DNA from: Deltaproteobacteria bacterium
Lineage (GTDB): Bacteria; Desulfobacterota; Desulfarculia; Adiutricales; Adiutricaceae
Length of the DNA: 64,000 nucleotides
Reading direction: 5' to 3'
Assembly: GCA_031279515.1 (NCBI GenBank)
Contig: JAITII010000111.1
Span: forward strand, 103 to 64,102
Part shown: piece after piece, positions 4,457 through 51,050 of the stretch
Numbering within the stretch: position 1 is the stretch's first letter
How the letters are laid out: every line of letters begins with the position of its first letter
Notes under the pieces: model-generated
The model's input: only the letters and a program-made list of their open reading frames with translations
Told to the model about the DNA's origin: nothing
Database searches by the model: none
Program-made: the position numbers and the translations under genes

Positions 4457-5949
4457 TATACCCCATAATTATGAGCCTTGTCTCTTGATTGAAGCCCATT
4501 TAAGAGGATGGACACCAGCTTGCCAAAGTCCCCATTGGACATCACAACTATCAGATCCCCAGGGCGGAGATCCTCTAAAATGTCCTCGGCAATCTGGCTG
4601 GCCTCAGGATAGATCCGAGCTTTTTCTTGACCTATATCAATTTTTAGCCTTTCTAAATCCAGGCGGTCGCCCTCCGGGGCCTTTTGAGGCTGATTGACTT
4701 GAGCTAAATACACCCTATCGGCACTTTGAAAACTTATAGCATATTCCTTCTGAAAAATGGCCCGCCTTGTCGTATTGCTTCTGGGCTCAAAGGCTACAAT
4801 TAGCCTTCTAGCTGGAAAGGCCTCCCTAATGGCCATAAGGGTCTTTAAAACTGCCGTGGGGTGGTGGGCAAAGTCATCTATCAAGGTGACCCCATCCTGG
4901 TCATAGATGATTTCCTGGCGCCTTTTTACCCCCGTAAAGCTTAAAAAGCTCCCTTTAAGCTCTCTTGTGCTTCCACCAAAATACTTATAGGCTGCCACAG
5001 CAGCTAAAGCTCCCAAGGCATTGTAACGGCCCATTCTCTTCCAGGTGAGCTCCAAAGAGAAGCCTTGGGGCCCTTCTATGGAGAAACTAGAAGAAAAGCC
5101 CATAGTCCTAAAGTCTGACATCCTCCAGTCACAATCTCCGGTCTCTCCATAGTAAAGGACAGGACACTTAGCTAGACGGGCTACTTTCCGCACCAGGGGA
5201 TCCATTCCATTGGCGAGCAAAAGCCCATCCGGTGGAAGTAGCAAAATAAGGCTCTCATAGGCGGATACGACGCTCTCTAAATCTGGATAGATATCTGCGT
5301 GGTCGAACTCCACAGAGGTCAAAATTACTACGCTGGGCCGGTAGAAGACAAACTTGGGGACTTTGAGGAAAAAAGCGCTGTCATACTCATCTCCTTCTAT
5401 GATAAAGACCTCCCCTCCCCCTTTCCTAAAGGGGCGCTGGAAATTAAGGGAGGCCCCACCAATCAAGAATCCCGGATCTAGGCCCCCTTGGGTAAAGATA
5501 TGGGCGCACAGGTCTGTGATGCTGCTCTTACCATGGCAGCCTGCCACCACTAAGTTATTCGTCTGTGCAAGAAACAATTGCTCCATAGCCTGGGGAAAAG
5601 AAAGGTAATTTATTGCCCTGTCCAAAAGGGTCTGGACCACAGGAAATTTACGCGTGACAACATTTCCCACCACCACTAGAGAAATGTTTTCTCCCAGGCT
5701 CTCTGGGCCGTAGCCTTTAGAGACTGGGACCAAAAGGTCCTCCACCAGTTCCTTCATAGGTGAGTAGATGTTCTCATCGGAGCCTGTGACCCTTAAGCCC
5801 TGGGAAACTAAGAGCCCGGCCAAGGATGCCATAGCCACCCCTCCTATGCCCAAAAGATGGATAGTGCCTCCCTTAAGATCAGAAGGAAGGACGTTTAAGG
5901 TTTTATCCAGTTCTATTTGAGACATGCTCTCTCCAAATGGGGCTTTCAC
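4456..5949 (-). CDS. mpl: UDP-N-acetylmuramate:L-alanyl-gamma-D-glutamyl-meso-diaminopimelate ligase (Mur ligase family, Mpl-type)
   Basis: 497 aa with an N-terminal HLLGIGGVAMASLAGLL motif, P-loop AGCHGKSS and the Mpl/MurC-type motif EGDEYDSAFF. The true start may be the internal Met at 5925. Confidence 0.85.
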   Translation of the reverse strand: MKAPFGESMSQIELDKTLNVLPSDLKGGTIHLLGIGGVAMASLAGLLVSQGLRVTGSDENIYSPMKELVEDLLVPVSKGYGPESLGENISLVVVGNVVTRKFPVVQTLLDRAINYLSFPQAMEQLFLAQTNNLVVAGCHGKSSITDLCAHIFTQGGLDPGFLIGGASLNFQRPFRKGGGEVFIIEGDEYDSAFFLKVPKFVFYRPSVVILTSVEFDHADIYPDLESVVSAYESLILLLPPDGLLLANGMDPLVRKVARLAKCPVLYYGETGDCDWRMSDFRTMGFSSSFSIEGPQGFSLELTWKRMGRYNALGALAAVAAYKYFGGSTRELKGSFLSFTGVKRRQEIIYDQDGVTLIDDFAHHPTAVLKTLMAIREAFPARRLIVAFEPRSNTTRRAIFQKEYAISFQSADRVYLAQVNQPQKAPEGDRLDLERLKIDIGQEKARIYPEASQIAEDILEDLRPGDLIVVMSNGDFGKLVSILLNGLQSRDKAHNYGV

Positions 5950-36074: not shown

Positions 36075-37799
36075 ATGGCTTCAATTTTTATCAGACCCTT
36101 GAAGGGCCGGCAGTACTATGGTATATATGGTGCAAAGCCTACTCGCGTTAAGGATACTGTCAACAACGAGCAAAATTACTTAGGCAAAGTCTTGATACCC
36201 TCAGGTAACGTCATTTTTAATGATAAACTAGAAAATTGGATAGAAGTACATGACCTTGATATGAATTATGTTTATGAAAAGATTTTGTCTAGCGCAAAAA
36301 AATTTGACTTACCTATTAATTTCATAAACCAAAATGTCAAACAAACTCAAGATGATAAAACTTTATCTGATAATATTATCGAATAACTAGATACTACAAT
36401 GCCAAATCTTTATAATGATATCGATATCTTATTTTCCGAACAGTTTGATTTTGGGCATATATATTTGCTAGATTATCTAAGCGAATCGTTAGGGCTAACA
36501 AAAATATTAAGTGATATTTTCCCCTCCAATTGGAAACTCATTTTAACTTTAGCAGAATATTTTGCTCTTGATTGTTCACAAAGCTTAGATTGCAGTACAT
36601 GGGTTAAGAAAGCGAATACCGAGCTTAATCCACAACTTCTATATTCTCAAAGAAAAAACGGTTTATTTTCATCTATTACAAATGATTCTATTTTTAAATT
36701 TTACGAAAAATGGTCAAGTACTGTTAGGGACCGCGATTTTTTTGCCTTAGATAATACATTTCTATCAACCTATTCCGATGATATTCTTGAAGCTGAATAT
36801 GGCTATAATCGTGATAGAGAAAAATTAAAACAAATAAATCTAAGCCTCATATTTGGTGAAACTTCTGGACTTCCTTTATTTTCATCTTTGTTCCACGGCA
36901 ATATGAACGACGTAAGAACATTAAAAAAGACAATAGAACAGTTTAAGTTGATAAACCAAACTAATTATAGCATATTTATGGATAAAAACTTTTTTAGTTT
37001 AGAAAATATTAATTTCTTAACTACACATAATCCTCCGATAAAATTTACTATTTCTTTACCTCAAACAGTTGACATGTTTGAAGAGCTAATATTAGATACT
37101 CTTCCTATCAGTTCCTCAAATGATTCAGTAATAGTAACTTCATCAGGAATTTCAATGGGAGTAAGCAAAAAAATTAAATGGTATAATGGAACAGATCTAT
37201 ATGCACATGTTTATCGTAATTATCATGAAAAATTACAAGTCGAAGAGATCGTAAAATACAATCTAATCGACATGCTTAACAAAGCAACCTTAAATCCAGA
37301 ACTATATATTAATGATAAAACTTTCAACGAAGTATTGAATTTTAGAAGATCAAGCAAGACTGAAAGTGGATATACTGTAAAAATAAAGCCTGATATGCTT
37401 AGTAAAAAAACTTTAACAAGTGGATGGCTAATATTACTATCAAATTGTATCAAAGACACTAGCCAAGCAATTCGGAAATACAGGAAAAAAGATGTTGTAG
37501 AAAAAGCTTTTGATCTTTTTCAAAATCATAATGCTTTAAAAGGAATAAAAGCCAATAGCTATATAAATTTATCATCTACGGTTTTCGTATGCTTTATTTC
37601 TTTAATTTTATTGTCTGAAATCCATGATGTTATGGATACTAAAAATCTATATTCTATATATTCTATGAGAGAATTACTTGAAACTCTAAGCACTCAACGT
37701 GTTATTCATATAAAAGATAAAAAAATACTTAAACCTATAACTATAGATCAAAGAAGGTTGTTTAAACATTTTAATTGCCCTTTGCCAAATACTTCTTAG
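36075..37799 (+). mobile_element. IS1634-like (IS4-superfamily DDE) transposase gene split by a single in-frame TAA
   Basis: Track ORFs 36075-36386 and 36399-37799 are in the same frame, separated only by TAA (36384-36386) plus 4 codons. Together they give ~570 aa with the family layout: N-terminal ..NYLGKV.., DDE-like FALDNTFLSTYS, IFMDKNFFSLENINFL and YRKKDVVEKAFDLFQN. The region is very AT-rich. The element ends are not resolved. Confidence 0.7.
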
Positions 37800-38538: not shown

Positions 38539-41418
38539 ATGAATAAAATAATCATTTTACTCATATTAATGATGTCTTTATTAATTTGCAGCCATTCTTT
38601 TGCTCAAAATGACCAGCTCTTGGATGAAGCCATAGAGCAAACTACCAGTCGCCTTGAAGCTTTAAGGGACAGTTTCGGTCTGCTCCACGAGGACACCCTA
38701 AGTTCATTGGACGAACTAATAGGCCTCTACCATCAAAAGGGTCTGTGGACCACTACCCTTGCCCTGGCAGACGAACTCATAGCTATGAGAAAACTCTATA
38801 ACGGCCCAGAGCATATCCTCACCTTAAGGGCCATGGCCAGGTGCCGAGACCTTCACTTTGAACTTGCCAATTACAACCTGGCCCAAAACTTGGCTCTAGA
38901 GGTCAAAGAAGCCGGAGATAGGCTTTTGGGTGAATGGGACCCCTTTACTATAGATGCTACCTTTAAGCTCATCTTAGGCCACTATAGCCTGGGGGAGACC
39001 CTGGAGGGCTTAAGGGTCTTAGATCTTTTAAGGGACGCTCTCACAAGTAATACCTCCTTGGCTCCAAGCTTCGAGTCAATATTGAGAGCCCAATATCTTT
39101 CCGCACTGGGCCATTTTCTTCTTGGTGACTACGAAGGGGCGGGCCTATTTGTCGATGTCATTTTAGAAGATCCTTTGCTACAAGACTTTCCAGAGCTCTA
39201 TATTGAGGCTTGGGCCCTCAAAAGAAACATCCTTTACTTTTCCGCAGATTTGGAAAACTACCTCATTTTAAAGGACCAGCTTTTGAGCCCGCAAGCCGTC
39301 TATGACCCTAGCTTACCTATAGCCCTTAAAGAAAACACCATCTTTGCCGCAGAGCTTTCCGCCCTTAGGGCCCCGGAAGCCGGGGCCCTCTATCGTGATA
39401 TCTTGGCCCTAGCCCAAGATAAGCTGGGACAAAGGCATCCCATAACTTTAAACATTCTGCTATCCTACCGCTCCCACCTCTTATCCATTGGCCAAGAGGA
39501 GGGTTTGGAAATGATATCCAATATTGCCAAAGAGCTTCCCTTCTCCGAGGCCTCCTTTCCCGTAGATTTGGATCTCTTACCTGCCCTAGAGCTCATGGAA
39601 GAAGGAAACTATAGTGAGGCCTTAGGGCTTCTACAGCAGATCCTTTTCTATAAGCTAGCTATCCTTGAGCACAATAACCCCCACCTCACCTTCCTCTATA
39701 CCCTCTTGGCAGAGGCTTCCTTTAAGGCCAGCCAGAGGGAAAATAGCTTACTAATATTTAAGGCAAGGCTTTTTAGCTATCTTCAAGGAGATTACCCTCC
39801 AGAGCGCCCTAGCTTGAATCTGGAAGAGGCGGTCTTTTACGCCAAGTTAGCCTGTGAGTATACACAAGAGCGCGAGTTTGCCCAGGAGCCTAACCCCTAT
39901 TTTGTACCCACTCCCTTTGTGCTGGAAAATAGGTACCACCTCCTTGCCAGTTTGCTTCTCTATTCAGACGACAGGATGCCTGAGGCCCTATTTGCCATGG
40001 ACCTAGTTAGGACCTCTGAACTGGAGGGCTTCAAGGACCAAAAGCACAATATTGGGCTCATGACAGACCCGGAAAGGGAGATAAAAGACCTACTTGACGC
40101 CAATGTGCGCTCTTTGCGCCTCTATAACCTCCAAAGGACCTCCCATTTGCTCCAAGTAGGAGATATTTCACTAATAAGTCTCCCGATGGAGCTGCCCCAG
40201 GATTTGACCCAATCCTCTCAAAGCTTTTTCGCAGCTCTCTTGGAGAGCCTCCAGGAGGCCATGGGAAGAACCCCTAAGACACTACCCTTAGCTGCCCAAG
40301 ACGATCCGGAGGTATTGCGTTTTATCGAGGCCTTAGGCGAAGACGAAGCCCTTATCCATATCTTTCTGGCAGAGGAAAGCTCCTTTTTAGTCATTTCCAG
40401 GCCAGCGGGGGTCTATAAAGTAATGACCAAGGTCCCCAAAGAACGGTACCTGGAAGCCATAGAGGCCTTTAGGGAATCTTTGGGAAATATTGGCCTTGAG
40501 TCCTTGGTGGCCTTAGAAGAGCTCCATAGCCTAAGTATCCAAACCCTTTTAGACAAGGGCTATTTAGAGCCCGACAGCATAAGCAAGCTCTTTTTCTACC
40601 TAGATGGCCCCATGCGGCAGATCCCCATGGCCGCTCTCTATGACGGCCAAAGATTTCTGGTGGAATCCTATACTATCCAACTCTATCCCCCCAACGCCTC
40701 CAAGGCTCACATGGGACCTGTGGCCAAGGAGGCCAATATCATAGGCTTGGCTACAAGTTTACCCTACCATGGGCTAAATCCTCTTTTAGGGGCAGAATTG
40801 GAAACCTCCCTCATAGTCAAAGACAAAGACAATCCCCAGGGCCTCTTTCCCGGTACAAAGGCCATAAATAAGAGCTTTACTTACGAATTTTTAATAAATG
40901 CCCTAAAAAAGCCCCCGGACCTCATCCACATTGCCACTCATTTTCTCTATAACCCCATAGATCACCGTAATTCCAAGCTTTTAATTGGAGATGGGGATTT
41001 AAAAAGCCTTGCCACCATGGATTTGGATGCTAACTTCAATTTTGCCGGCACCCGCTTAATAGCCCTTTCCGCATGTGAAACGGACCTAGGGCCCCCTTCA
41101 GAAGACGCCAGGGAATTGGAAAGCCTGGCTAGTCTTATTGTCATCCGAGGCGGCGGCTGCGTCCTCTCCACCCTCTGGAAGATAGATGACGGGGCAACGA
41201 GAACAATCATGGAGCTTTTCTACCTAAACCTTTCTGACGGATATACCATAGCCCAAAGCCTTGCCAGGGCCCAAGTAGCCGTCATCAAAGGTCACCTTTT
41301 GGAAGCTTCTGAAAACCCTAGGGGAGATATCCTCACTAGTGCTACCAATCCCGGGCTGACATGGGATGCGCACCCCTACTTTTGGGGCCCCTTTGTGCTA
41401 AATGGCGCCTGTAATTGA
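38539..41418 (+). CDS. Secreted TPR-repeat / CHAT (caspase-like) domain protein
   Basis: 959 aa with a signal peptide (MNKIIILLILMMSLLICSHSFAQ). The N-terminal two-thirds are helical and TPR-like. The C-terminal CHAT domain has the His/Cys dyad context LIHIATHF and LIALSACETD. Confidence 0.85.
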   Translation: MNKIIILLILMMSLLICSHSFAQNDQLLDEAIEQTTSRLEALRDSFGLLHEDTLSSLDELIGLYHQKGLWTTTLALADELIAMRKLYNGPEHILTLRAMARCRDLHFELANYNLAQNLALEVKEAGDRLLGEWDPFTIDATFKLILGHYSLGETLEGLRVLDLLRDALTSNTSLAPSFESILRAQYLSALGHFLLGDYEGAGLFVDVILEDPLLQDFPELYIEAWALKRNILYFSADLENYLILKDQLLSPQAVYDPSLPIALKENTIFAAELSALRAPEAGALYRDILALAQDKLGQRHPITLNILLSYRSHLLSIGQEEGLEMISNIAKELPFSEASFPVDLDLLPALELMEEGNYSEALGLLQQILFYKLAILEHNNPHLTFLYTLLAEASFKASQRENSLLIFKARLFSYLQGDYPPERPSLNLEEAVFYAKLACEYTQEREFAQEPNPYFVPTPFVLENRYHLLASLLLYSDDRMPEALFAMDLVRTSELEGFKDQKHNIGLMTDPEREIKDLLDANVRSLRLYNLQRTSHLLQVGDISLISLPMELPQDLTQSSQSFFAALLESLQEAMGRTPKTLPLAAQDDPEVLRFIEALGEDEALIHIFLAEESSFLVISRPAGVYKVMTKVPKERYLEAIEAFRESLGNIGLESLVALEELHSLSIQTLLDKGYLEPDSISKLFFYLDGPMRQIPMAALYDGQRFLVESYTIQLYPPNASKAHMGPVAKEANIIGLATSLPYHGLNPLLGAELETSLIVKDKDNPQGLFPGTKAINKSFTYEFLINALKKPPDLIHIATHFLYNPIDHRNSKLLIGDGDLKSLATMDLDANFNFAGTRLIALSACETDLGPPSEDARELESLASLIVIRGGGCVLSTLWKIDDGATRTIMELFYLNLSDGYTIAQSLARAQVAVIKGHLLEASENPRGDILTSATNPGLTWDAHPYFWGPFVLNGACN

Positions 41419-41470: not shown

Positions 41471-41516
41471 TTTGCGCTTTCTCCACAAACGCAAAAATAA
41501 TTTTGCGTTTTTTGCG
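41471..41516. promoter_or_regulatory. Candidate upstream activator sites: inverted repeat TTTGCG-N13-CGCAAA plus two TTTTGCG direct repeats
   Basis: The inverted repeat runs from TTTGCG (41471-41476) to CGCAAA (41490-41495). The direct repeats TTTTGCG are at 41501-41507 and 41510-41516. They lie 100-145 bp upstream of the candidate -24/-12 element. Confidence 0.3.
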
Positions 41517-41614
41517 TATTTTCCCTCCCCTTTGCCCTCTGAGGGCCTTGGGCACCCCTCCTTAAACTTACCCACTAAGCCACATCTAGTTTTCTCTCCA
41601 ATAAAAACCCCTCC

Positions 41615-41630
41615 TGGCCCTTCCTTTGCA
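41615..41630 (+). promoter_or_regulatory. Candidate sigma-54 (-24/-12) promoter TGGCCCTTCCTTTGCA upstream of mttB
   Basis: The GG and GC dinucleotides have the canonical spacing (TGGCAC-N5-TTGCA consensus; one mismatch in the -24 hexamer). It lies about 190 nt upstream of the mttB ATG. Confidence 0.4.
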
Positions 41631-41821
41631 AAGAGAATTATAGGTTTTCGTTTTTTTATACTGGTCCAACTCATGGGCAATAAATGGGGGAGCCGGCCCC
41701 CCATTATCAATTTGTACTTGTATAAATAGTAGCCACATGGGTGCAACTAGTTTCTTATCCACATACCCTCAAAGGGAAAGAATTTTCTGTATGCTTCTCA
41801 ATTTCCGTAAAGGAGGTAACC

Positions 41822-43312
41822 ATGAGACGCGATCAATTCGCCGGTTACAACACCAGCGGAGGATTTAGGCTCCGTCCTTTCACTAAGGAGGAACTGGACC
41901 ATATCCACCGGGCGACATTGGAGGTCTTAGAGCATCAGGGCATTTTCGTCCAACACGACGAAGCCTTAGAGCTCTTTGACCGGGCCGGGGCTAGGATCAA
42001 TACCAAGACCAAAATAGTAAAGATCCCCGCCTTCTTGGTGAAAGATGCCTTGGATTCCACGCCAGAGACGGTGGTCATGCACGCCAGAGATCCCAAGCAA
42101 GATGCCGTCATCGAGTCCAACCGCGTAGCTTTCACTAACTTCGGTGAGGCCCTAAACGTTTATGACATTAATACCGGGGTACATAGGGAGACCTGCAAGC
42201 AGGATCTGGCCGACATGGCCACCATCATCGACAAGCTGGATGTAATCTCCGTGGTGGAACAGCCCGCAGGTTCCCACGACATGCCCCAGGAAATCGGGCA
42301 TCTTCACGACTACGAGGCCATCATGAACAACACCAGCAAGCACGTTGTCATGATGCCCCACAACATGGAGATTGCCGAGCTCTTGGTGCGCATGTCCGAG
42401 ATTGCCGCAAAGGCCCATTTCCCCAACGATCCGGTGGAAGACCACCGCATTTTATCCTTTTTAATCTGCCCGGTGAGCCCCTTGAGGCTCCTGGAGCCAA
42501 CCTGCGACGTCATCATCGTTGCCGCCAGAAACAACTGTGTTTGTAACGTACTTTCCATGGCTATGGCAGGCGGTTCCAGCTCCGTGCACCTGGCTGGCAC
42601 CCTGGTAACCCACAATGCCGAAGTGCTCTCGGGTATAGTACTAAGCCAGCTCGTGCGCCGCGGCGCACCCGTCATCTACGGCAGCTCCACCACAGCTTTT
42701 GACCTCCGCACCGGGGCCGCCGCCGTGGGCTCCCCTGAATTGGGGATGATAGGTGCCGCAGTGGGAGCCATGGCTCAATACTACAATCTGCCCAGCTGGA
42801 CGGCAGGTGGGTAGGCGGACAGTAAGGTTGCAGACGCTCAGGCGGCCTACGAGTGCACCATCACTGCACTCTACCCAGCCCTCGCCGGCGTCAACCTCAT
42901 CTACGGGTTGGGTATGCTGGAACTGGGAGTCACCTTCGATTACTCTCAGCTCCTTATTGGCTCTGACATAGCCGAGATGATACTTTACAGTTTGAAGGGA
43001 ATTCCGGTTACAGACGAGACTTTGGCGGTTGAGGATATCAAACAGGTAGGATCCTTTAAAGATTTCCTCACTCACAAGTCTACGATGAAGTACCTCCGTT
43101 CCCAGTCTTTTGCCCCTTACAGTGACCGCCGTATGCGCCACAATTGGCTCAAAGACGGAGGCAAGGACATGACTCAAAGGGCCCTAGAAAAGGCCAGGGT
43201 CATTTTGAACACCCACAAACCCTTGCCCATCCCAGAAGATGCCAGAAAGGCCATAAGGGAACTTATCAATAGGGAGGAAAAGGTTAGAAATCTCAACCTT
43301 TCCGCAGCCTAA
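41822..43312 (+). CDS. mttB: Trimethylamine:corrinoid methyltransferase MttB with in-frame UAG (pyrrolysine) at 42812-42814
   Basis: Track ORFs 41741-42814 and 42908-43312 share one frame and the 31 codons between them are open. The MttB-family sequence is continuous across ...YYNLPSWTAGG-[TAG]-ADSKVADAQAAYE.... AGGAGG lies 7 nt before ATG 41822. The true stop is TAA at 43310, followed by a strong terminator. A pyl cassette lies immediately downstream. Confidence 0.92.
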
Positions 43313-43442: not shown

Positions 43443-44297
43443 ATGCAATTTTCCAATGACCAAATTAAACGCCTCACTGAGATGGGAGCAGCTCCAGAAG
43501 ATTTAGAAGAAGTATTTCCGGATAGCGCTTCGGCCAACAAGGCATTTCAAAAGATTGAAACTAGGCTATCTAGGAAGCTTTCAGAGGGCATAAAGAATTA
43601 CTTAAAAAATGGCTCTAGGCCAGAAGGGGCTATTTTAAAGGAAAAGCTCTCTGTGGCACTTTGTGACTTCGGGTTTTCCGAAGTGGAAACGCCCCTTATA
43701 GTCTCTAAAAAATTGTTGGAGCGCATGGGCTTAGATGATGAGAGTGCCCTAACAAAACAGATTTTCTGGCTGGATGCCAATAGGGCTATTAGACCCATGT
43801 TGGCCCCCAACCTCTATTACCTCCTGGTGGATCTCCTGCGCATAGCGCCCCACCCTGTCTCCATCTTTGAAATAGGCCCTTGCATGCGCAAGGAGAGCCA
43901 AGGCGCTCGCCACGGTGAAGAGTTTACTATGCTCAACATCGTTGAGATGGGCCTTAAAATGGAAGATAGAATGGCCAGGACCCTTGCTTTGGCCCGCTTG
44001 GTACTGGAAACCATAGGAATTCCCTTTGAAAGCTGCAAGGTGGAAGAAGAAAGTTCCACCGTCTATTCCACTACCTTGGATATAGTGAGCCCCCAGGGAC
44101 TGGAATTGGCCTCCACAGCCATGGGGCCGCACCCCTTAGATGCCCCCTGGAGGATAGATGTCCCCTGGGTGGGCCTAGGCTTTGGCATAGAGCGCCTGCT
44201 CATGGCCTTAAAGGCGCAAAAAGGGGAGACAGTAAACCTGGCGAAGGTCTCAAGGAGCCTTTCATACCTGGGCGGCTTCCGCCTGAATATTTCTTAA
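43443..44297 (+). CDS. pylSc: Pyrrolysyl-tRNA synthetase, catalytic C-terminal protein (bacterial split form)
   Basis: 284 aa with class II aaRS core motifs RPMLAPNLYYLL, IFEIGPCMRKESQG, EFTMLNIVEMG and VGLGFGIERLL, and the C-terminus SLSYLGGFRLNIS typical of PylS. The RBS is GGGAGG. Confidence 0.93.
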   Translation: MQFSNDQIKRLTEMGAAPEDLEEVFPDSASANKAFQKIETRLSRKLSEGIKNYLKNGSRPEGAILKEKLSVALCDFGFSEVETPLIVSKKLLERMGLDDESALTKQIFWLDANRAIRPMLAPNLYYLLVDLLRIAPHPVSIFEIGPCMRKESQGARHGEEFTMLNIVEMGLKMEDRMARTLALARLVLETIGIPFESCKVEEESSTVYSTTLDIVSPQGLELASTAMGPHPLDAPWRIDVPWVGLGFGIERLLMALKAQKGETVNLAKVSRSLSYLGGFRLNIS

Positions 44298-44305
44298 GGC
44301 AGAAT

Positions 44306-45193
44306 ATGACACGTCTAACCTCCGAACACCTTCTAGACGGTTTCGACGAAAGGGGTTTTTCCCAGTTCCTCTCGAAACAATTGCATACGGATATCTTCCA
44401 TCTCACTTGCCGCGCCTGGGATTTGGATCCGAAAAAACTGGCAAGTAAGTTAAAAATGAAGAAACTAGCCGCCATTAGAATAAGTTCCGGAGAAGGTACC
44501 ATCACCGGCTTTGCCGAAATTGTAGCTGAAGCGGCTTCACTTATGGGGCTCCTTGCAGAGGTCATGGAAGCCCCAGATGATGAGGGCTTTATTGAGGCGC
44601 ATAATTGGGGAGCGGACATCTTGGCGTACTCGGATGACTGGGACTTTGTGGCCCAAACAGCGGACAAAAGCCGCACTATACATAACAATCCCGCCACCAG
44701 TCGCATCTATGTCTCTAGTTTAGAATTTTTAGTGGGCACAAGTCTAAAGGGCTTAGATGTCCTGGTTTGGGGCTTGGGACCAGTGGGTTTGGGAGCAGCC
44801 TTTAGGCTTTCAGAGCTAAAAGCTAAAGTCCACCTCTACGACACGGACCAGGGTGCCCTTCTAAAGGGTGAAAAACTAATCCCTGGGGCAAGTTCCATTA
44901 AAGGCGAAGGGGCCCTTTTAGATTATCTCAAAAACTATCAAAAACCCATTATTTTCGAGGCAGTACCACAAGAGGAGCTAATAGGGTCCCTAAGCCTAGA
45001 GTCCCTCTTTGAGGGAAAGGCCCCAAGAGTAGCAGCCCCTGGGGTGCCTCTATCCTGGCCTTTTAACTGGCTTAAGGGCGAAAACGGCTCCCTTTTCCAC
45101 GAGCCCTTGATGGCAGGGACCGCCTCCATGCTAGCCGGATTATGCGTAGAAGATTATTCTCCCCAATACGGCAAGGCCTTGGAAATTTTATAA
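44306..45193 (+). CDS. pylD: Pyrrolysine biosynthesis dehydrogenase PylD
   Basis: 295 aa with the PylD-like layout: AAIRISSGEGTITGF (compare the VPVTSGNGIIGNF type), Rossmann motif VLVWGLGPVGLG and C-terminal PLMAGTASMLAGL. Confidence 0.85.
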   Translation: MTRLTSEHLLDGFDERGFSQFLSKQLHTDIFHLTCRAWDLDPKKLASKLKMKKLAAIRISSGEGTITGFAEIVAEAASLMGLLAEVMEAPDDEGFIEAHNWGADILAYSDDWDFVAQTADKSRTIHNNPATSRIYVSSLEFLVGTSLKGLDVLVWGLGPVGLGAAFRLSELKAKVHLYDTDQGALLKGEKLIPGASSIKGEGALLDYLKNYQKPIIFEAVPQEELIGSLSLESLFEGKAPRVAAPGVPLSWPFNWLKGENGSLFHEPLMAGTASMLAGLCVEDYSPQYGKALEIL

Positions 45194-45267
45194 ATAAGGG
45201 CACAAAGCGCATATTTAGATGATTTTACTTTTACTTACTTACATTCTTTGATGATGAAAATATATCT

Positions 45268-45341
45268 GGAGAGCGGATCGGATTATGATCACGGGGACTC
45301 TAAATCCCCGCAGTCGGGCGAGACACCCGGGCTCTCCGCCA
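45268..45341 (+). tRNA. pylT: tRNA-Pyl (anticodon CUA at 45300-45302), CCA encoded
   Basis: The hand-folded structure is:
- acceptor stem GGAGAGC/GCTCTCC
- one nt (G) between the acceptor and D stems
- a 5-bp D stem with a 5-nt loop (GATTA)
- a 6-bp anticodon stem CGGGGA/TCCCCG with loop CTCTAAA
- a 3-nt variable loop CAG
- T arm TCGGG-CGAGACA-CCCGG lacking the T-psi-C-type GTTC sequence
- discriminator G, then CCA
These are the known idiosyncrasies of tRNA-Pyl. Confidence 0.9.
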
Positions 45342-45354
45342 TTTTAGGTGTGTT

Positions 45355-45714
45355 ATGGTAGAAAACGTCAATACCAAGAGGGTAGCCAAGAGATACTACC
45401 GTAAAAAGAACGACCTTTTCTCACTTTTGGAAAAGATTAAGCTGTGGCCCTCCCGCTCCGGTAGACTCCACGGTATCTTGACTATAACCATACACGGAGA
45501 GATGGCCACCATCACCACCCACTGCGGAAAGACTTTTCAGGTCCGCAACTCCCGCAACTCCCGGGCAGCTAGGTGGTTGCGCAACAAGTACTATTCTGGC
45601 GCCTGCACGGCTTGCGGCGTGCCGGAATGGAAGCTGGCCAAATACGGCCAGACCTTTTTCAGCCGCAGCTACGGCGCCTATTTAAAACCCGGGGATCTAA
45701 GGTCATGCAAGTAG
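45355..45714 (+). CDS. pylSn: Pyrrolysyl-tRNA synthetase N-terminal tRNA-binding domain protein
   Basis: 119 aa. The segment LWPSRSGRLHGILTITIHGEMATITTHCGKTFQVRNSRNSRAARWLRNKYYSGACTACG resembles the archaeal PylRS N-domain (..LWMSRTGTIHKI...[24 protein letters not shown]..). It starts 13 nt after the tRNA and ends in TAG (45712-45714). Confidence 0.88.
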   Translation: MVENVNTKRVAKRYYRKKNDLFSLLEKIKLWPSRSGRLHGILTITIHGEMATITTHCGKTFQVRNSRNSRAARWLRNKYYSGACTACGVPEWKLAKYGQTFFSRSYGAYLKPGDLRSCK

Positions 45715-46760
45715 CATACAAAGACATAACTGACAAGGCCCTGGACCTTTATCCCTTGGGACATGAGGAGCTCACACGCCTTATCTTGCCTAAAGATGAA
45801 GACGAAAGGGAACTTTTGCATTCATCTGCCAGGACTCTCAGAAAACGCTTCACAGGATCACTTATTTTTACCTACGGGTTCATCTATCTATCCACCATCT
45901 GCCGCAATGACTGCAGCTTTTGCTTCTACCGCAAATCCAATGGGAAATCCCACAGGTACCGTAAGACCCATGAGGAGGTAATAAGAGCTGCCAAATCCTT
46001 AGCCGAACAGGGAGTAAACCTTATTGACCTCACCATGGGAGAGGACCCTGATGTGGAAAAGAGGAGCTACTTAGAAGACACGGCCACCCTCATCCGCGAG
46101 GTCTGTCAACACACCTCCATGCCGGTTATGATCTCCCCGGGACTTATCTCCTCTTACGGCCTTGAACTCTTCCGTGAGGCAGGGGCACTCTTCTACGCCT
46201 GTTACCAAGAGACCCATAGTCCCTCCCTCTTTGGACTCCTGCGCTGCGGGCAAAGCTATGCCGCCCGCTGGAGCGCCAAAAAAAAGGCTAAAAAGACGGG
46301 GCTTAAGGTGGAAGACGGGGTCCTCTGCGGGGTGGGCGAAAGCGTAAAGGACCTGGCTAACTCCATCCTCTCCATGAAAGAATTGGGCGCAGCCCAAGTA
46401 CGGGCCATGGCCTATGTACCACCACCCACTGGTAAAAAAGAGAACTCCTCACCTTCTAAGGCCGCCCGCCGCCGCGAGCTGGACATGATAGCCGCCTTGC
46501 GCCTAAGTTTTCCCAATGCCCTTATCCCGGCATCCTTGGATGTGGAGGGGGTAGCGGGACTTTTAGACCGCTTAAATGCCGGCGCTAACCTTATAACCTC
46601 CTTTGTCCCAGCCTCCCAAGGCCTGGCAGGTGTTGCCCAGGCAGCTTTAGACATTGAAAACGAGAGCCGCTCCCTTCATCATGTATTGCCACTTTTAGAG
46701 CAATTAGGACTTACTGCTGCAAGCCCGCAAGAATACATAGAAAAGGTGAAGAGCTTATGA
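45705..46760 (+). CDS. pylB: Methylornithine synthase PylB (radical SAM)
   Basis: The start is taken at ATG 45705 (MQVAYKDITDKALD); the track start at 45573 lies inside pylSn. Motifs are CRNDCSFCFY, LTMGEDP, MISPGL, YQETH, VEDGVLCGVGE and IPASLDVEG...RLNAGANLITS. Confidence 0.93.
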   Translation: MQVAYKDITDKALDLYPLGHEELTRLILPKDEDERELLHSSARTLRKRFTGSLIFTYGFIYLSTICRNDCSFCFYRKSNGKSHRYRKTHEEVIRAAKSLAEQGVNLIDLTMGEDPDVEKRSYLEDTATLIREVCQHTSMPVMISPGLISSYGLELFREAGALFYACYQETHSPSLFGLLRCGQSYAARWSAKKKAKKTGLKVEDGVLCGVGESVKDLANSILSMKELGAAQVRAMAYVPPPTGKKENSSPSKAARRRELDMIAALRLSFPNALIPASLDVEGVAGLLDRLNAGANLITSFVPASQGLAGVAQAALDIENESRSLHHVLPLLEQLGLTAASPQEYIEKVKSL

Positions 46761-47902
46761 CATTCACACTTGGTATTTTGGGAGGAGGCCTCCAGGGACT
46801 GGAAGCCGCCCTCATAGCCAAGCTTTCAGGTTGGAACACCGTAGTGATGGACGGGAAAGATATGGCGCCAGCGGCCAAACTGGCAACAAAATTTGTTGCC
46901 AAAAAAGCCCAGACCATTCTGGACCTAGAGAATTCTTTCCATAATTGCGATGCTATCTTGCCTGCCAATGAGAACCTTAGCTCATTGGAACTTGTGGACA
47001 AGTGGCACAAGTTGGGCTCTTCCCCACCTGTGGCCTTTGATCTTAAATCCTTTAGGATCTCTAGGGATAAAGAAAAATCCAAAAAGCTCTTCCTAGAGGC
47101 CCAAGCGCCCGTGGCGGCTAGCTATCCAGGATGCGACTTTCCTTTAATTGCCAAACCCACAGACAGAAGCGGCAGCCAAGGGGTTACGCTCATAAAAAAT
47201 AAAGAGGAACTGGAAAGATTATTCCCAGAAGGCAATACTAAAGGCTATCTTTTTGAAGAGTATTGCCCTGGACCATCATATTCACTGGAACTTACGGGAA
47301 AACCGCACAACTATAAGACCTGGGTTGCCACCTATCTGGAGATGGACAGTAGCTATGACTGCAGGGCCGTGTGGTCACCTGTGGCGGATGCGGCTTTAGA
47401 AGAGAGCTTTGCGGCAATATCTGTTGCTCTGGCAGAAAAACTGGAGCTTATTGGGCTCATGGATATTGAAGTTATAGACACACCTAAAGGCTTAATTGTT
47501 CTGGAGATAGATGCCCGCTTTCCTAGCCAGACTCCGGTGGCTGTCTACCTATCTTCGGGGGTAAACCTTTTAGCAGAACTACTCTCCCTTTTCACAAAGG
47601 ATGTCCCGCAAGAGCTACAAAAAGAGCCTATGTTTTCACTTTTGGAACACTTAGACGTCAAAAATGGACAGATGTCCCTGATGGGCGAGCATAGGATCGC
47701 CCAAGCAAGGCCCCTATCCCTCAAAGAAAATTTTTTTGGGGCACCCTTGGCCTTAACGGACATGGAAGAAGGGGACACTAGTTTTGCCGCTACTATTATT
47801 TGCAGAGCAAAGACCCAAGCTATGCTAAAGCAGCAAAGGCGAGAGATCTATGAGCGGCTAGGGTTGCACCTGGGAACCAATGTGCCCAAGGAAATCGAAT
47901 AA
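46757..47902 (+). CDS. pylC: Pyrrolysine biosynthesis ATP-grasp ligase PylC
   Basis: 381 aa with N-terminal GILGGGLQGLEAA, LPANENL, FRISRDKEKSKKLF and LEIDARFPSQTP, the last nearly identical to archaeal PylC as I recall it. It forms an ATGA overlap with the pylB stop. Confidence 0.93.
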   Translation: MTFTLGILGGGLQGLEAALIAKLSGWNTVVMDGKDMAPAAKLATKFVAKKAQTILDLENSFHNCDAILPANENLSSLELVDKWHKLGSSPPVAFDLKSFRISRDKEKSKKLFLEAQAPVAASYPGCDFPLIAKPTDRSGSQGVTLIKNKEELERLFPEGNTKGYLFEEYCPGPSYSLELTGKPHNYKTWVATYLEMDSSYDCRAVWSPVADAALEESFAAISVALAEKLELIGLMDIEVIDTPKGLIVLEIDARFPSQTPVAVYLSSGVNLLAELLSLFTKDVPQELQKEPMFSLLEHLDVKNGQMSLMGEHRIAQARPLSLKENFFGAPLALTDMEEGDTSFAATIICRAKTQAMLKQQRREIYERLGLHLGTNVPKEIE

Positions 47903-47915
47903 CCCTAAGGAGTAT

Positions 47916-47941
47916 GGGGTATGGGTAAGGGGTATGGGTAA
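47916..47941 (+). repeat. Perfect 13-bp tandem repeat (GGGGTATGGGTAA x2) forming a canonical G-quadruplex motif
   Basis: The sequence is GGGG-TAT-GGG-TAA-GGGG-TAT-GGG, read directly. It begins 14 nt after the pylC stop codon. Confidence 0.6.
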
Positions 47942-48921
47942 CATTTCTATTTTCGCATTTAATTAGATGGATATTAGAGTGCATTAAAAAATAGTATGCT
48001 CTCAAGGTGCCATCACTTTTTTATAAAGTATAGCCCTCGTAGAAGTTAAGATATTTTAAATCAAAAAAATATCGCCTCTTGTAAGCTGATTTTTTTTGGT
48101 AAATAAAATTTATCCCCCTTTTTATATAAGATACATAAAAAAATTAGGGCCATAGTGCTTTCCATTACTAGAAAGATTTTTTCTCATTGTTCTATAGATC
48201 ATAGCATTTGGAATATTTATTAAAATATTTAAAAAATACGAAAAAGGCTTAAAAAAATTTTTTATAGCATTAAATCTTTTAATAGTAGAATTTTAGCCCC
48301 TGGGGCAAGTTAAATTATTTGCCCTCTTTAGCTAGTTTATTAATCTAAAATAGGATCTCTATCCCGGCCAAGGGAGCTGGCAAGTACTCTTGGATAAGCC
48401 GGCCAGTTAAAAAAGCTCTGGGCTAGCCAGCCCCAAGAGTCTCAGGCAAAGCCGCAAAGCCTCATGGGTATGCCATGGCACAAAGACCATTTTCTGGAAT
48501 TATAACTTGGTTTTTTCTCCTTGAGCCCGGGCCTTCTAAACTACCCCCATTTTTTTATCTGTTTAATCCCTAGCTTTACCAGGGGTTTAGAAATCCTAGG
48601 CCAAAAAACTGCGAAAGGAAGCAAAATTTTTATTATACTAGAATTAGAGAAAGATTATAATTTATTAGCTTATTATGCGTAACATAACTAATGAACGCAT
48701 ACTTATAAAATTTAGCTAATAGCCTAATTAAGAAGAATTTGCCGATATATCTTTAGTTCTGAGGGCAAGAAAACTAGACTGGTCTTATCATCTTGACTTT
48801 ATCCCTATAAATGTAGATAATCGATATTTGCTTTATTCCAAATTCTAAGCTAAAAAGAGTTCCAGCTCGCCTGGAATTGCCAAGCCTAAGTCTACTTACC
48901 ATCTTTTTTCCAAGGAGGCCA

Positions 48922-48972
48922 ATGGAAAGTGCCAGGGTACACCCTAGCAGTCCAGTACAATTAAAAACATGA
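48922..48972 (+). CDS. Candidate 16-codon leader uORF (MESARVHPSSPVQLKT) translationally coupled to the EF-G paralogue
   Basis: A strong SD (AAGGAGG) lies just upstream of ATG 48922, although the spacing is short. The uORF stop TGA (48970-48972) overlaps the EF-G ATG (48969-48971) as ATGA. The EF-G ATG has no SD of its own. Confidence 0.35.
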   Translation: MESARVHPSSPVQLKT

Positions 48973-51050
48973 AAGACGTCCAGAAACAGAGAACCGTTAG
49001 TTTGATCTCCCATGGAGGGGCCGGCAAGACCAGTTTGGCCGAGGCCTTTTTATACTTTACCAAGGTTTCCAGCCGCCTAGGTTCCGTGGCGGACGGCACC
49101 AGCTGCCTGGACTTCGAGCCCGAGGAAATCAAGAGAAAGAGCTCCTTATCCACCTCCTTCCATAGCGTACCTTGGAAGGGATGCCAGATAACCTTCGCAG
49201 ACACACCGGGTGGCGAGAACTTCTTAAATGACACCCGCACGGTAATGGAGGGCACAGATGGCGCCCTGGTCCTGGTGGATGCAGTTGACATGGTCAAGGT
49301 CTCCACAGAAAAGGGTTGGGCTTTCGCCGACTACTTAAACCTCCCGCGTCTTATTGTCATCAACAAGATGGACAAGGAAAGGGCCGACTATTACAGGACC
49401 ATTGACAGCATCACGGAGAACTTCACAAGCCCCAAACCCATACCCATAGCCATTCCCATAGGCGCTGAGGACAAGTTCACCGGCACGGTGGATCTCTTGA
49501 AAAACAAGGCCTATAGCTTTGATGCTCAAGGGAAGCCCACTGAACAGCCCATAGATGGAAACTTACAACCCCTAGTGGCCCAGTGGCGGGAAAAGCTTGT
49601 GGAAACCATCAGCGAGACGGACGACGCACTCATTGAAAAATACCTGGAAGGTCAAGAAATATCAGCCGAAGAGTTGGATAAGGCCCTAAAGGAGGCTGTA
49701 AAGGCAAATAAAATCGCCCCTATCCTCCCAGCAGGCGCTCTAAAGCTCATTGGGATCTCTGGTATCTTAGAGGCTATCTTAGGGCTCCTGCCCTCTCCGG
49801 CAGCCAGAGGTCCGGTGGAAGGCCATAGCCCCAGCGATCCGGTACAGCCATTTTTAAAAGAGCCCAGCGTAGAGGCCCCTTTCTCTGCCCTGGTTATCAA
49901 GACCACTGTAGACCCCTTTGCTGGACAACTCACTATCTTCCGTATCTTTTCCGGCACTTTGGCCCCAGATAGCGGTTTTTTAAACGTCACAAGGGGTCAA
50001 AAGGAGCGCTTTGGGCAACTCTTTACCTTGGAGGGCAAGAACCAGAAGTCCATAGAGGAAGCGGGCCCAGGAGACATAGTGGCTGTGGCCAAACTCAAGG
50101 TCACCCAGACCGGAGACAGCATAACCGACGAGGCTAGCCCTGTCATCTTTAACGCCCTTCCCCCCATGGAACCTGTGGTATCCTTTGCCGTTGAGGCTAA
50201 AAACAAGGGCGATGAGGAAAAGGTCTTTGCCTCTATCAATAAAATGACCCTAGAGGACGTAACCTTGCGTCTGAACCGCAACAATCAGACCAAGGAGATG
50301 ATCCTTTCAGGTATGGGCCAGGTCCATCTGGATGCCACCCTGGAAAAGATAAAGCGCAAATACAATGTGGAGGTCATCTTAAAGGCTCCCAAGGTGGCCT
50401 ACAAGGAGACCATCAAAGGCAGGGCCAAGGTCCAAGGCAAGTATAAAAAGCAAACCGGTGGCAAAGGCCAGTATGGCGACTGCGTGATAGAGCTAGAACC
50501 CCTGCCTAGGGGAGAAGGCTTTATCTTTGAAGACAAGATTGTAGGGGGAGTCATCCCCAGGCAATTCATTCCAGCAGTGGAAAAAGGCATAGTGGAAGCC
50601 ATGGCCGGAGGCGTAGTGAGCGGTAACCCAGTTGTGGACTGTAAGGTTGCACTGGTCTTCGGCAGCTATCACGATGTGGACTCCTCAGAAATGGCCTTCA
50701 AGATAGCCGGCTCCATGGCCTTTAAAAAGGCCTTCTTAGAGTGTAAACCCACCATCTTGGAACCCATCATGCTCTTGACTGTCACCGTCCCCGATGAGTT
50801 CATGGGTGATGTTATGGGTGATATCTCTAGCCGCAGGGGCAAACTATTAGGCACCGAAAGCCACGGGAAAAAGCAAGTCATAAATGCCCATGTACCTCAA
50901 ATGGAGCTCTTGACCTATTCACCGGTACTCACTTCCATGACAGGTGGTCGCGGCTCCTTTTCCCTGGAATTTGCCCACTATGACGAAGCGCCGGCACCGG
51001 TACGAGACAAGGTTATCTCCGAATATAAGCCCCAGGAGGAAAAGGAATAG
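48969..51050 (+). CDS. Elongation factor G family GTPase (EF-G paralogue)
   Basis: 693 aa with G1 SHGGAGKTS (not the canonical AHIDAGKT), G3 DTPGGENF and G4 INKMDK. EF-G domains II-V are recognisable (..GQVHLD.., ..YKKQTGGKGQYGD.., ..HDVDSSEMAFK..). Confidence 0.9.
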   Translation: MKDVQKQRTVSLISHGGAGKTSLAEAFLYFTKVSSRLGSVADGTSCLDFEPEEIKRKSSLSTSFHSVPWKGCQITFADTPGGENFLNDTRTVMEGTDGALVLVDAVDMVKVSTEKGWAFADYLNLPRLIVINKMDKERADYYRTIDSITENFTSPKPIPIAIPIGAEDKFTGTVDLLKNKAYSFDAQGKPTEQPIDGNLQPLVAQWREKLVETISETDDALIEKYLEGQEISAEELDKALKEAVKANKIAPILPAGALKLIGISGILEAILGLLPSPAARGPVEGHSPSDPVQPFLKEPSVEAPFSALVIKTTVDPFAGQLTIFRIFSGTLAPDSGFLNVTRGQKERFGQLFTLEGKNQKSIEEAGPGDIVAVAKLKVTQTGDSITDEASPVIFNALPPMEPVVSFAVEAKNKGDEEKVFASINKMTLEDVTLRLNRNNQTKEMILSGMGQVHLDATLEKIKRKYNVEVILKAPKVAYKETIKGRAKVQGKYKKQTGGKGQYGDCVIELEPLPRGEGFIFEDKIVGGVIPRQFIPAVEKGIVEAMAGGVVSGNPVVDCKVALVFGSYHDVDSSEMAFKIAGSMAFKKAFLECKPTILEPIMLLTVTVPDEFMGDVMGDISSRRGKLLGTESHGKKQVINAHVPQMELLTYSPVLTSMTGGRGSFSLEFAHYDEAPAPVRDKVISEYKPQEEKE

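Follow-up and report, generated by a model that had tools for sequence, protein, structure and literature searches.

The 74 nucleotides at positions 45268–45341 (+) of the window, i.e., the whole stretch of 64,000 nt of DNA that was analyzed, are almost certainly pylT, the gene for the amber suppressor tRNA-Pyl and a member of a known family, as judged from the sequence. The gene is located in a cluster with the order mttB (with an in-frame UAG)-pylSc-pylD-pylT-pylSn-pylB-pylC, and the tRNA, the synthetase, the amino acid pathway, and the client codon are all found within 6 kb. An uncultured bacterium related to the Adiutrix lineage of termite guts would thus possess a complete pyrrolysine system with a link to the use of trimethylamine, and no papers on pyrrolysine in this lineage were found beyond a passing mention. 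For specialists, a pylT beside pylS in a pyl cluster is expected, and the gene is a component of a known system and no new mechanism. Charging, decoding, expression, and processing of the tRNA are predictions from the known pathway. The features of the gene and its two flanking spacers are as follows:

45268–45341, + strand: pylT, tRNA-Pyl(CUA), 74 nt with encoded CCA (covariance model R1, minimum free energy (MFE) fold, comparison with the closest relative, L001)
45300–45302, + strand: anticodon CUA, within the loop CUCUAAA (45298–45304) with U33 and A37 (fold, model alignment)
45319–45325, + strand: T loop CGAGACA, with C54 at 45319 in place of the usual U54; A58 (45323) and a purine at position 57 are kept
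45338–45341, + strand: discriminator G73 and encoded CCA, the CCA itself at 45339–45341 (sequence)
45194–45267, + strand: AT-rich 74-nt spacer from the pylD stop to pylT, not conserved in L001
45342–45354, + strand: 13-nt spacer from the tRNA 3′ end to the pylSn start, with a Shine-Dalgarno-like motif AGGTG at 45346–45350

Identification of pylT with an independent covariance model

Relatives were found via the neighboring PylSc protein; 21 of them were aligned, and the alignment was used to fetch 80 reference-genome loci. ARAGORN called tRNA-Pyl in 54 of the 80 loci, which yielded 55 genes with 51 distinct sequences. These 51 sequences, all from other genomes, were used to generate the covariance model R1, and the window was left out. 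Searching both strands of the 64-kb window with R1 resulted in one sole match, at 45268–45341 on the forward strand, with 87.3 bits and an E-value of about 1e-20. The match spans model positions 1–74 of 74, and every pair is canonical. A second pylT was not found by R1 on either strand of the 64 kb. An earlier note on this DNA (the sequence-only reading) had proposed a tRNA-Pyl fold to be checked with a covariance model, and R1 accepted the fold at exactly these coordinates; the 74 bases quoted in that note are identical to the sequence of 45268–45341 (+).

The window gene and 66 pylT genes taken from the pyl clusters of other bacteria form a set of 67, which includes the contigs L081 and L082. 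The window pylT aligns column for column with the 66 others, and the differences in the stems keep the pairing. Covariation in the alignment of the 51 ARAGORN-called sequences supports the cloverleaf: standard pairs were present in 98.5% of the cells, and two-sided changes were observed in 12 of the 22 pairs. None of 500 shuffles reached the observed values, and when the pairing partners were slid by 1–3 columns, 34–60% of the cells were paired. The anticodon helix of 6 bp covaries as well, since five of its six pairs show two-sided changes. The loop CUCUAAA, G8, the GAUC D stem, G73, and the CCA turned out to be invariant or nearly invariant columns: G8 is present in 67 of the 67 bacterial pylT examined, G73 in 60, and an encoded CCA likewise in 60.

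Two deviations were observed elsewhere in the family. In seven of the 67 genes the discriminator is not G73, but A73 (L030, L050, L066, L071, L072, and L078) or U73 (L053). Discriminator-based orthogonality has been reported (PMC9071458), and these discriminators may be related to it. In addition, pylT of Candidatus Adiutrix and its group (L002:9342-9415, L004:6265-6338, L006:8823-8896) contains two non-canonical positions, a U·U and a U·C, in the anticodon stem of 6 bp, which in the window gene is fully paired.

Fold and loops of the tRNA

With RNAfold, the cloverleaf was obtained as both the MFE and the centroid structure of the 74 nt. The folding energy was -33.1 kcal/mol, which corresponds to a z-score of -2.55 versus dinucleotide shuffles, and 3 of 200 shuffles folded at least as well. 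By itself, this z-score is modest. The acceptor stem has 7 bp and is followed by a 1-nt linker, the D arm, and a further single nucleotide. Most of the peculiarities that the sequence-only reading had listed for the cloverleaf were recovered. [quoted passage not shown] The 6-bp anticodon stem, in which CGGGGA pairs with UCCCCG, is Watson-Crick throughout and was found in the fold as well as in the alignment to R1. The same two approaches, together with the sequence itself, placed the CUCUAAA loop with the anticodon CUA at 45298–45304, and a variable loop of 3 nt, CAG, at 45311–45313. G1:C72 and the discriminator G could be read from the sequence and the fold, and the CCA end is indeed encoded in the genome. 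A T stem of 5 bp closes the T loop, which, as had been noted, lacks the GTTC-type sequence: it reads CGAGACA and contains no T54-Psi55-C56.

The D arm was the exception. The note had claimed a tiny D loop of 5 nt, but this loop needs an extra, non-conserved G·U pair. Homology instead points to the invariant 4-bp GAUC/GAUC stem and a 7-nt loop, GGAUUAU. This loop opens with a GG that may or may not act as G18G19, which a small D loop of the tRNA-Pyl type would lack. A 7-nt D loop is the commonest class (40 of the 67 bacterial pylT), and in only 17 of these 40 genes a fifth pair would be possible. Because 40 of the 67 genes share the 7-nt class, a 5-nt D loop does not appear to define the bacterial tRNA-Pyl family.

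Conservation of pylT in related genomes

The gene order of the window cluster recurs in five other genomes (L001, L005, L008, L009, and L011), where pylT occupies the equivalent position; all five are metagenome-assembled genomes (MAGs) of uncultured termite-gut Deltaproteobacteria. In the sister group, Candidatus Adiutrix, the order is pylT-pylSn-pylSc-pylB-pylC, and pylT is thus located directly ahead of pylSn in both groups. The PylSc proteins of the related MAGs are only 58–66% identical to that of the window, and from this low identity the window is judged to be a different species-level or higher lineage.

The closest relative is L001 (JAITEZ010000063.1), with a PylSc identity of 66%. 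Its pylT is identical to the window gene at 68 of 74 positions, including the complete T loop CGAGACA, and the gap to pylSn is also 13 nt. The differences comprise three positions in the D loop, a G:C to C:G exchange in the anticodon stem (two), and a U·G to C:G exchange in the T stem (one). In contrast, the spacers upstream of the two genes are unrelated; the spacer is AT-rich in the window and GC-rich in L001. A conserved tRNA with stem changes that keep the pairing, next to unrelated spacers, is the pattern that selection on a structured RNA would be expected to produce. The pylT of L009 (JAIRZX010000467.1) has C54 and A60 like the window gene, whereas in L005, L008, and L011 the gene has U54, the usual base, together with a D loop of 5 nt. 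L011 contains a tandem pair of pylT genes between pylD and pylSn (4866–4937 and 5401–5472), and the two copies differ in one D-loop base and in one anticodon-stem pair, A:U versus U:A.

C54 in the T loop and the failure of standard tRNA finders

The sequence-only reading had stated that standard tRNA finders score tRNA-Pyl poorly, and this was borne out in the window. ARAGORN with default settings reported 0 tRNAs in the whole window, and a search with Rfam around the candidate gave no tRNA match at the gathering threshold or at E<=10, but only weak, chance matches of the snoRNA-like type. ARAGORN had also been suggested as a means to verify the gene; the native sequence was not called, and this failure is due to C54 alone. 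Lowered thresholds (-ps90, -ps80, -ps70, and -ps) did not help, pylT was still missed, and -ps70 resulted only in spurious calls on the opposite strand. However, when C54 was replaced by T in silico (C54T, position 45319), ARAGORN reported a "tRNA-Pyl (cta)" at the exact coordinates of pylT. The same edit also rescued the calls in L001 and L009. Position 60 was considered as a further cause and rejected, since an A60T edit left the gene undetected. C54 is the sole reason for the miss: ARAGORN is silent because the T loop begins with C54 instead of U54.

The result with Rfam has to be read differently. At gathering thresholds, the only Rfam match in the whole window was PYLIS_3 at 42812–42911. 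The Rfam tRNA model also gave no match to the pylT of L005, which ARAGORN does call. Because this ARAGORN-positive relative was missed too, the silence of Rfam carries no information; bacterial tRNA-Pyl is missed by its general tRNA model in general.

The problem is not confined to the window. ARAGORN made no pylT call in 26 of the 80 related loci, and the tRNA-Pyl covariance model found full-length copies in 9 of these 26 and partial copies at contig ends in 2 more. Pipelines that use T-loop seeds of the ARAGORN type would therefore report a pyl cluster without a tRNA, and mttB would seem to be two fragments or a pseudogene.

Among the 67 pylT, position 54 is T in 62 and C in 5, namely in the window, L001, L009, L081, and L082. 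Of the features that characterize the T loop of the family, the window gene has G55, G57, and A58, and deviates at position 54. L081 and L082 are contigs from a metagenome scan that was aimed at C54, and in these two genes C54 is found on a different backbone, together with U60. The scan retrieved these 2 contigs only, and the window's own contig was absent; the estimate of the rarity of C54 is rough because the scanned collection is incomplete for this lineage. In the window, L001, and L009, C54 is accompanied by A60. A strict coupling of C54 and A60 was rejected, because L081 and L082 combine C54 with U60 and several genes with U54 have A60. From this distribution, C54 is taken to be a rare, inherited, and recurrent variant within the family. 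A sequencing error is ruled out because C54 is common to L001 and L009 and is also present on the other backbone in L081 and L082. Every tRNA-Pyl described by 2007 had conserved the U54·A58 contact, and when A58 was mutated, the efficiency of aminoacylation fell by a factor of more than 1000 (Herring et al. 2007, PMC1851642). U54 was once considered invariant in tRNA-Pyl; the window gene and its relatives have a natural C. This raises the small question of how much weight the U54·A58 contact has in the compact tRNA-Pyl.

Alternative explanations

One alternative is that pylT of the window is decaying or weakened. C54 would then harm the T-loop fold, charging or stability of the tRNA would be poor, and read-through of the mttB UAG would be inefficient or lost. 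This would fit the removal of the U54·A58 contact that was conserved in the 2007 set, the drop of A58 mutants by more than 1000-fold (PMC1851642), and the low frequency of C54, which was found in only 5 of 67 pylT, two of them from the scan aimed at C54. Nevertheless, C54 has been kept in three genomes with PylSc identities of 58–66%, the stems are still perfectly paired via compensatory changes, and C54 also occurs on the different backbone of L081 and L082. Moreover, all pyl genes are intact, mttB, which shares about 90% identity with the L001 gene, retains its UAG, and R1 found no other pylT in the window. Intact pyl genes and a UAG-bearing mttB indicate, at the level of the sequences, continued selection on a working system, and a weakened gene appears very unlikely. 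An even smaller probability is assigned to a structured intergenic element other than a tRNA, such as a terminator, an attenuator, or a repeat-like hairpin cluster, that forms a cloverleaf by chance. ARAGORN and Rfam report no tRNA, as would be expected for such an element, and the z-score of the fold is only -2.55. However, R1 gives 87.3 bits over the full length, the anticodon loop, G8, the GAUC D stem, G73, and the CCA fit invariant or nearly invariant columns of the family, a one-base edit leads ARAGORN to call tRNA-Pyl, and no terminator-like site overlaps 45268–45341. The R1 match and the C54T rescue effectively refute a non-tRNA element.

A more far-reaching reading was also considered. 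A small sub-class of bacterial tRNA-Pyl may be defined by the C54 T loop, which is accompanied by A60 in three of the genes (window, L001, and L009). [quoted passage not shown] Independently of the elbow, maturation of the tRNA 3′ end and translation of pylSn may compete on one transcript. Taken jointly, a sub-class with a co-evolved elbow plus such a competition seems rather improbable, yet it would have consequences. A C54 tRNA/PylSn pair might show no cross-reaction with the standard PylRS/tRNA-Pyl pairs of bacteria or archaea, and genetic code expansion could then draw on it as one more orthogonal pair. The competition would couple the amounts of tRNA-Pyl and of its binding subunit.

The pyl cluster and the in-frame UAG of mttB

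The protein-coding genes of the cluster were assigned by matches to family profiles:

41741–43312, + strand: mttB, trimethylamine methyltransferase (TIGR02369), with an in-frame UAG at 42812–42814
43443–44297, + strand: pylSc, catalytic subunit of PylRS (NCBIfam TIGR02367, 261 bits, cut-off 178)
44306–45193, + strand: pylD, a divergent copy (NCBIfam TIGR03911, 127.8 bits, under the cut-off of 150)
45355–45714, + strand: pylSn, small tRNA-binding subunit of the split PylRS (NCBIfam TIGR03912, 121.4 bits, cut-off 51)
about 45705–46760, + strand: pylB (NCBIfam TIGR03910, 386 bits, cut-off 348; ORF translation)
46757–47902, + strand: pylC (NCBIfam TIGR03909, 296.5 bits, cut-off 248)

The NCBIfam matches of the neighbors confirmed that the tRNA gene is placed between pylD and pylSn, as the sequence-only reading had proposed, and for pylD this was based on PDB and Pfam in addition. 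The protein matches the PylD structures 4j43 and 4q39 at E-values of about 1e-14, and it reaches 50 bits with Pfam PylD_N (cut-off 27). PylD is divergent in this clade, with 42–51% identity among the closest relatives. Homologues of PylSc are named pyrrolysine--tRNA(Pyl) ligase large subunit. The ATG of pylSn is located at 45355 and thus, as claimed, 13 nt past pylT. The start of pylB was inferred as the ATG just ahead of the profile match. In Desulfitobacterium hafniense, pylT is presumably located at the head of the cluster, whereas in the window it lies inside, between pylD and pylSn.

The TIGR02369 profile matches mttB on both sides of the in-frame UAG, with profile positions 2–313 before it and positions 315–468 after it, and the UAG takes profile position 314. 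PYLIS_3 begins at the UAG and has a score of 62.7 bits (gathering score 38). The UAG and PYLIS_3 are located about 2.4 kb upstream of pylT, and the UAG at 42812–42814 is the codon that tRNA-Pyl is expected to read. A gene for an MttC-like corrinoid protein beside mttB was not present among the ORFs scanned, and an 85-aa ORF at 41472–41729 had no family match. The usage of stop codons was counted for the 37 open frames with 200 codons or more in the window, and TAG was found 11 times, TAA 20 times, and TGA 6 times. One of the 11 TAG ends is the internal UAG of mttB. In this pyrrolysine-encoding organism, UAG is not avoided as a stop codon.

Identity elements and comparison with known systems

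For the PylRS of D. hafniense, G73 and G1:C72 have been described as major identity elements, and G8, G10:C25, and A11:U24 as elements of moderate importance (Herring et al. 2007, PMC1851642). According to sequence and fold, pylT of the window has all of them. It also has U33, A37, and G51:C63, which are the elements described for M. barkeri (PMC7609411).

D. hafniense (PDB 2ZNI; PMC1851642) resembles the window in having separate pylSc and pylSn genes and a tRNA with the G8 linker, G10:C25, A11:U24, G1:C72, and G73. Further common features are the 6-bp anticodon stem, the 3-nt variable loop, the lack of T-Psi-C, A58, and a purine at position 57. The D. hafniense tRNA differs in having U54 and a 5-nt D loop, where the window gene has C54 and, by homology, a 7-nt D loop. 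The tRNA-Pyl of M. barkeri and M. mazei were compared by their published description (PMC7609411). They share the architecture, the anticodon CUA, U33, A37, G51:C63, G1:C72, and G73 with the window gene. In contrast, the archaeal tRNA-Pyl carries U8, its D loop is 5 nt long, and it is charged by a single fused PylRS (PMC7609411), whereas the window combines G8 with a split synthetase.

Outside of the family, the bovine mitochondrial tRNA-Ser(UGA) also has a 6-bp anticodon stem, a single linker nucleotide, a small D loop, and a 3-nt variable loop, and little sequence similarity to tRNA-Pyl (PMC1851642). The likeness is one of architecture alone; anticodon, identity, and genomic context are different.

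Expected function and transcription of pylT

Following the known pathway, PylB, PylC, and PylD would make pyrrolysine from two lysines. The split synthetase, PylSc helped by PylSn, would charge the tRNA, and PylSc would recognize G73, G1:C72, G8, and the pairs of the D stem. The charged tRNA-Pyl would be brought to the ribosome by the ordinary EF-Tu, and its CUA anticodon would read the UAG of mttB at 42812, leading to a full-length trimethylamine methyltransferase.

A consensus scan revealed neither a sigma-70-like promoter nor a terminator between pylD and pylT, and no terminator-like site overlapping pylT. A sigma-54 promoter, suggested by a GGCAC...GC motif in the spacer, was rejected because of its wrong spacing (read by eye). 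Given the negative outcome of the consensus scan, the tRNA is most likely excised from a longer polycistronic transcript, for which RNase P would generate the 5′ end and the 3′ end would be trimmed to the encoded CCA. Alternatively, the AT-rich spacer may contain an unrecognized promoter, and the tRNA would then be the first gene of a pylT-pylSn-pylB-pylC unit. Excision from the polycistronic transcript is the preferred reading. The ribosome-binding motif of pylSn is located just 5–9 nt past the CCA, and it is a speculation that the processing of the tRNA 3′ end could affect the translation of pylSn.

Regions adjoining the cluster

Directly upstream of mttB, genes for an IS1634-family transposase (36399–37799, +) and for a TPR-CHAT protein of 959 aa (38539–41418, +) were found. 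The TPR-CHAT protein resembles Csx29 only weakly, with a score of 47 bits that is far under the cut-off. These genes hint that the pyl/mttB cluster adjoins mobile or defense-related DNA.

Downstream of pylC, about 1.07 kb up to the next gene (47903–48968) contain no ORF of at least 80 aa on either strand. The next gene encodes a paralogue of EF-G (48969–51050, +; NF009381, 868 bits). It was considered as a pyl-linked factor and rejected, since a homologue near pylC was found in L007 (Deltaproteobacteria bacterium Smac51) only; L001 and L005 have none downstream of the cluster. The L007 homologue is 70% identical and encoded 2.4 kb downstream of pylC, and the linkage to the pyl genes is probably just local synteny.
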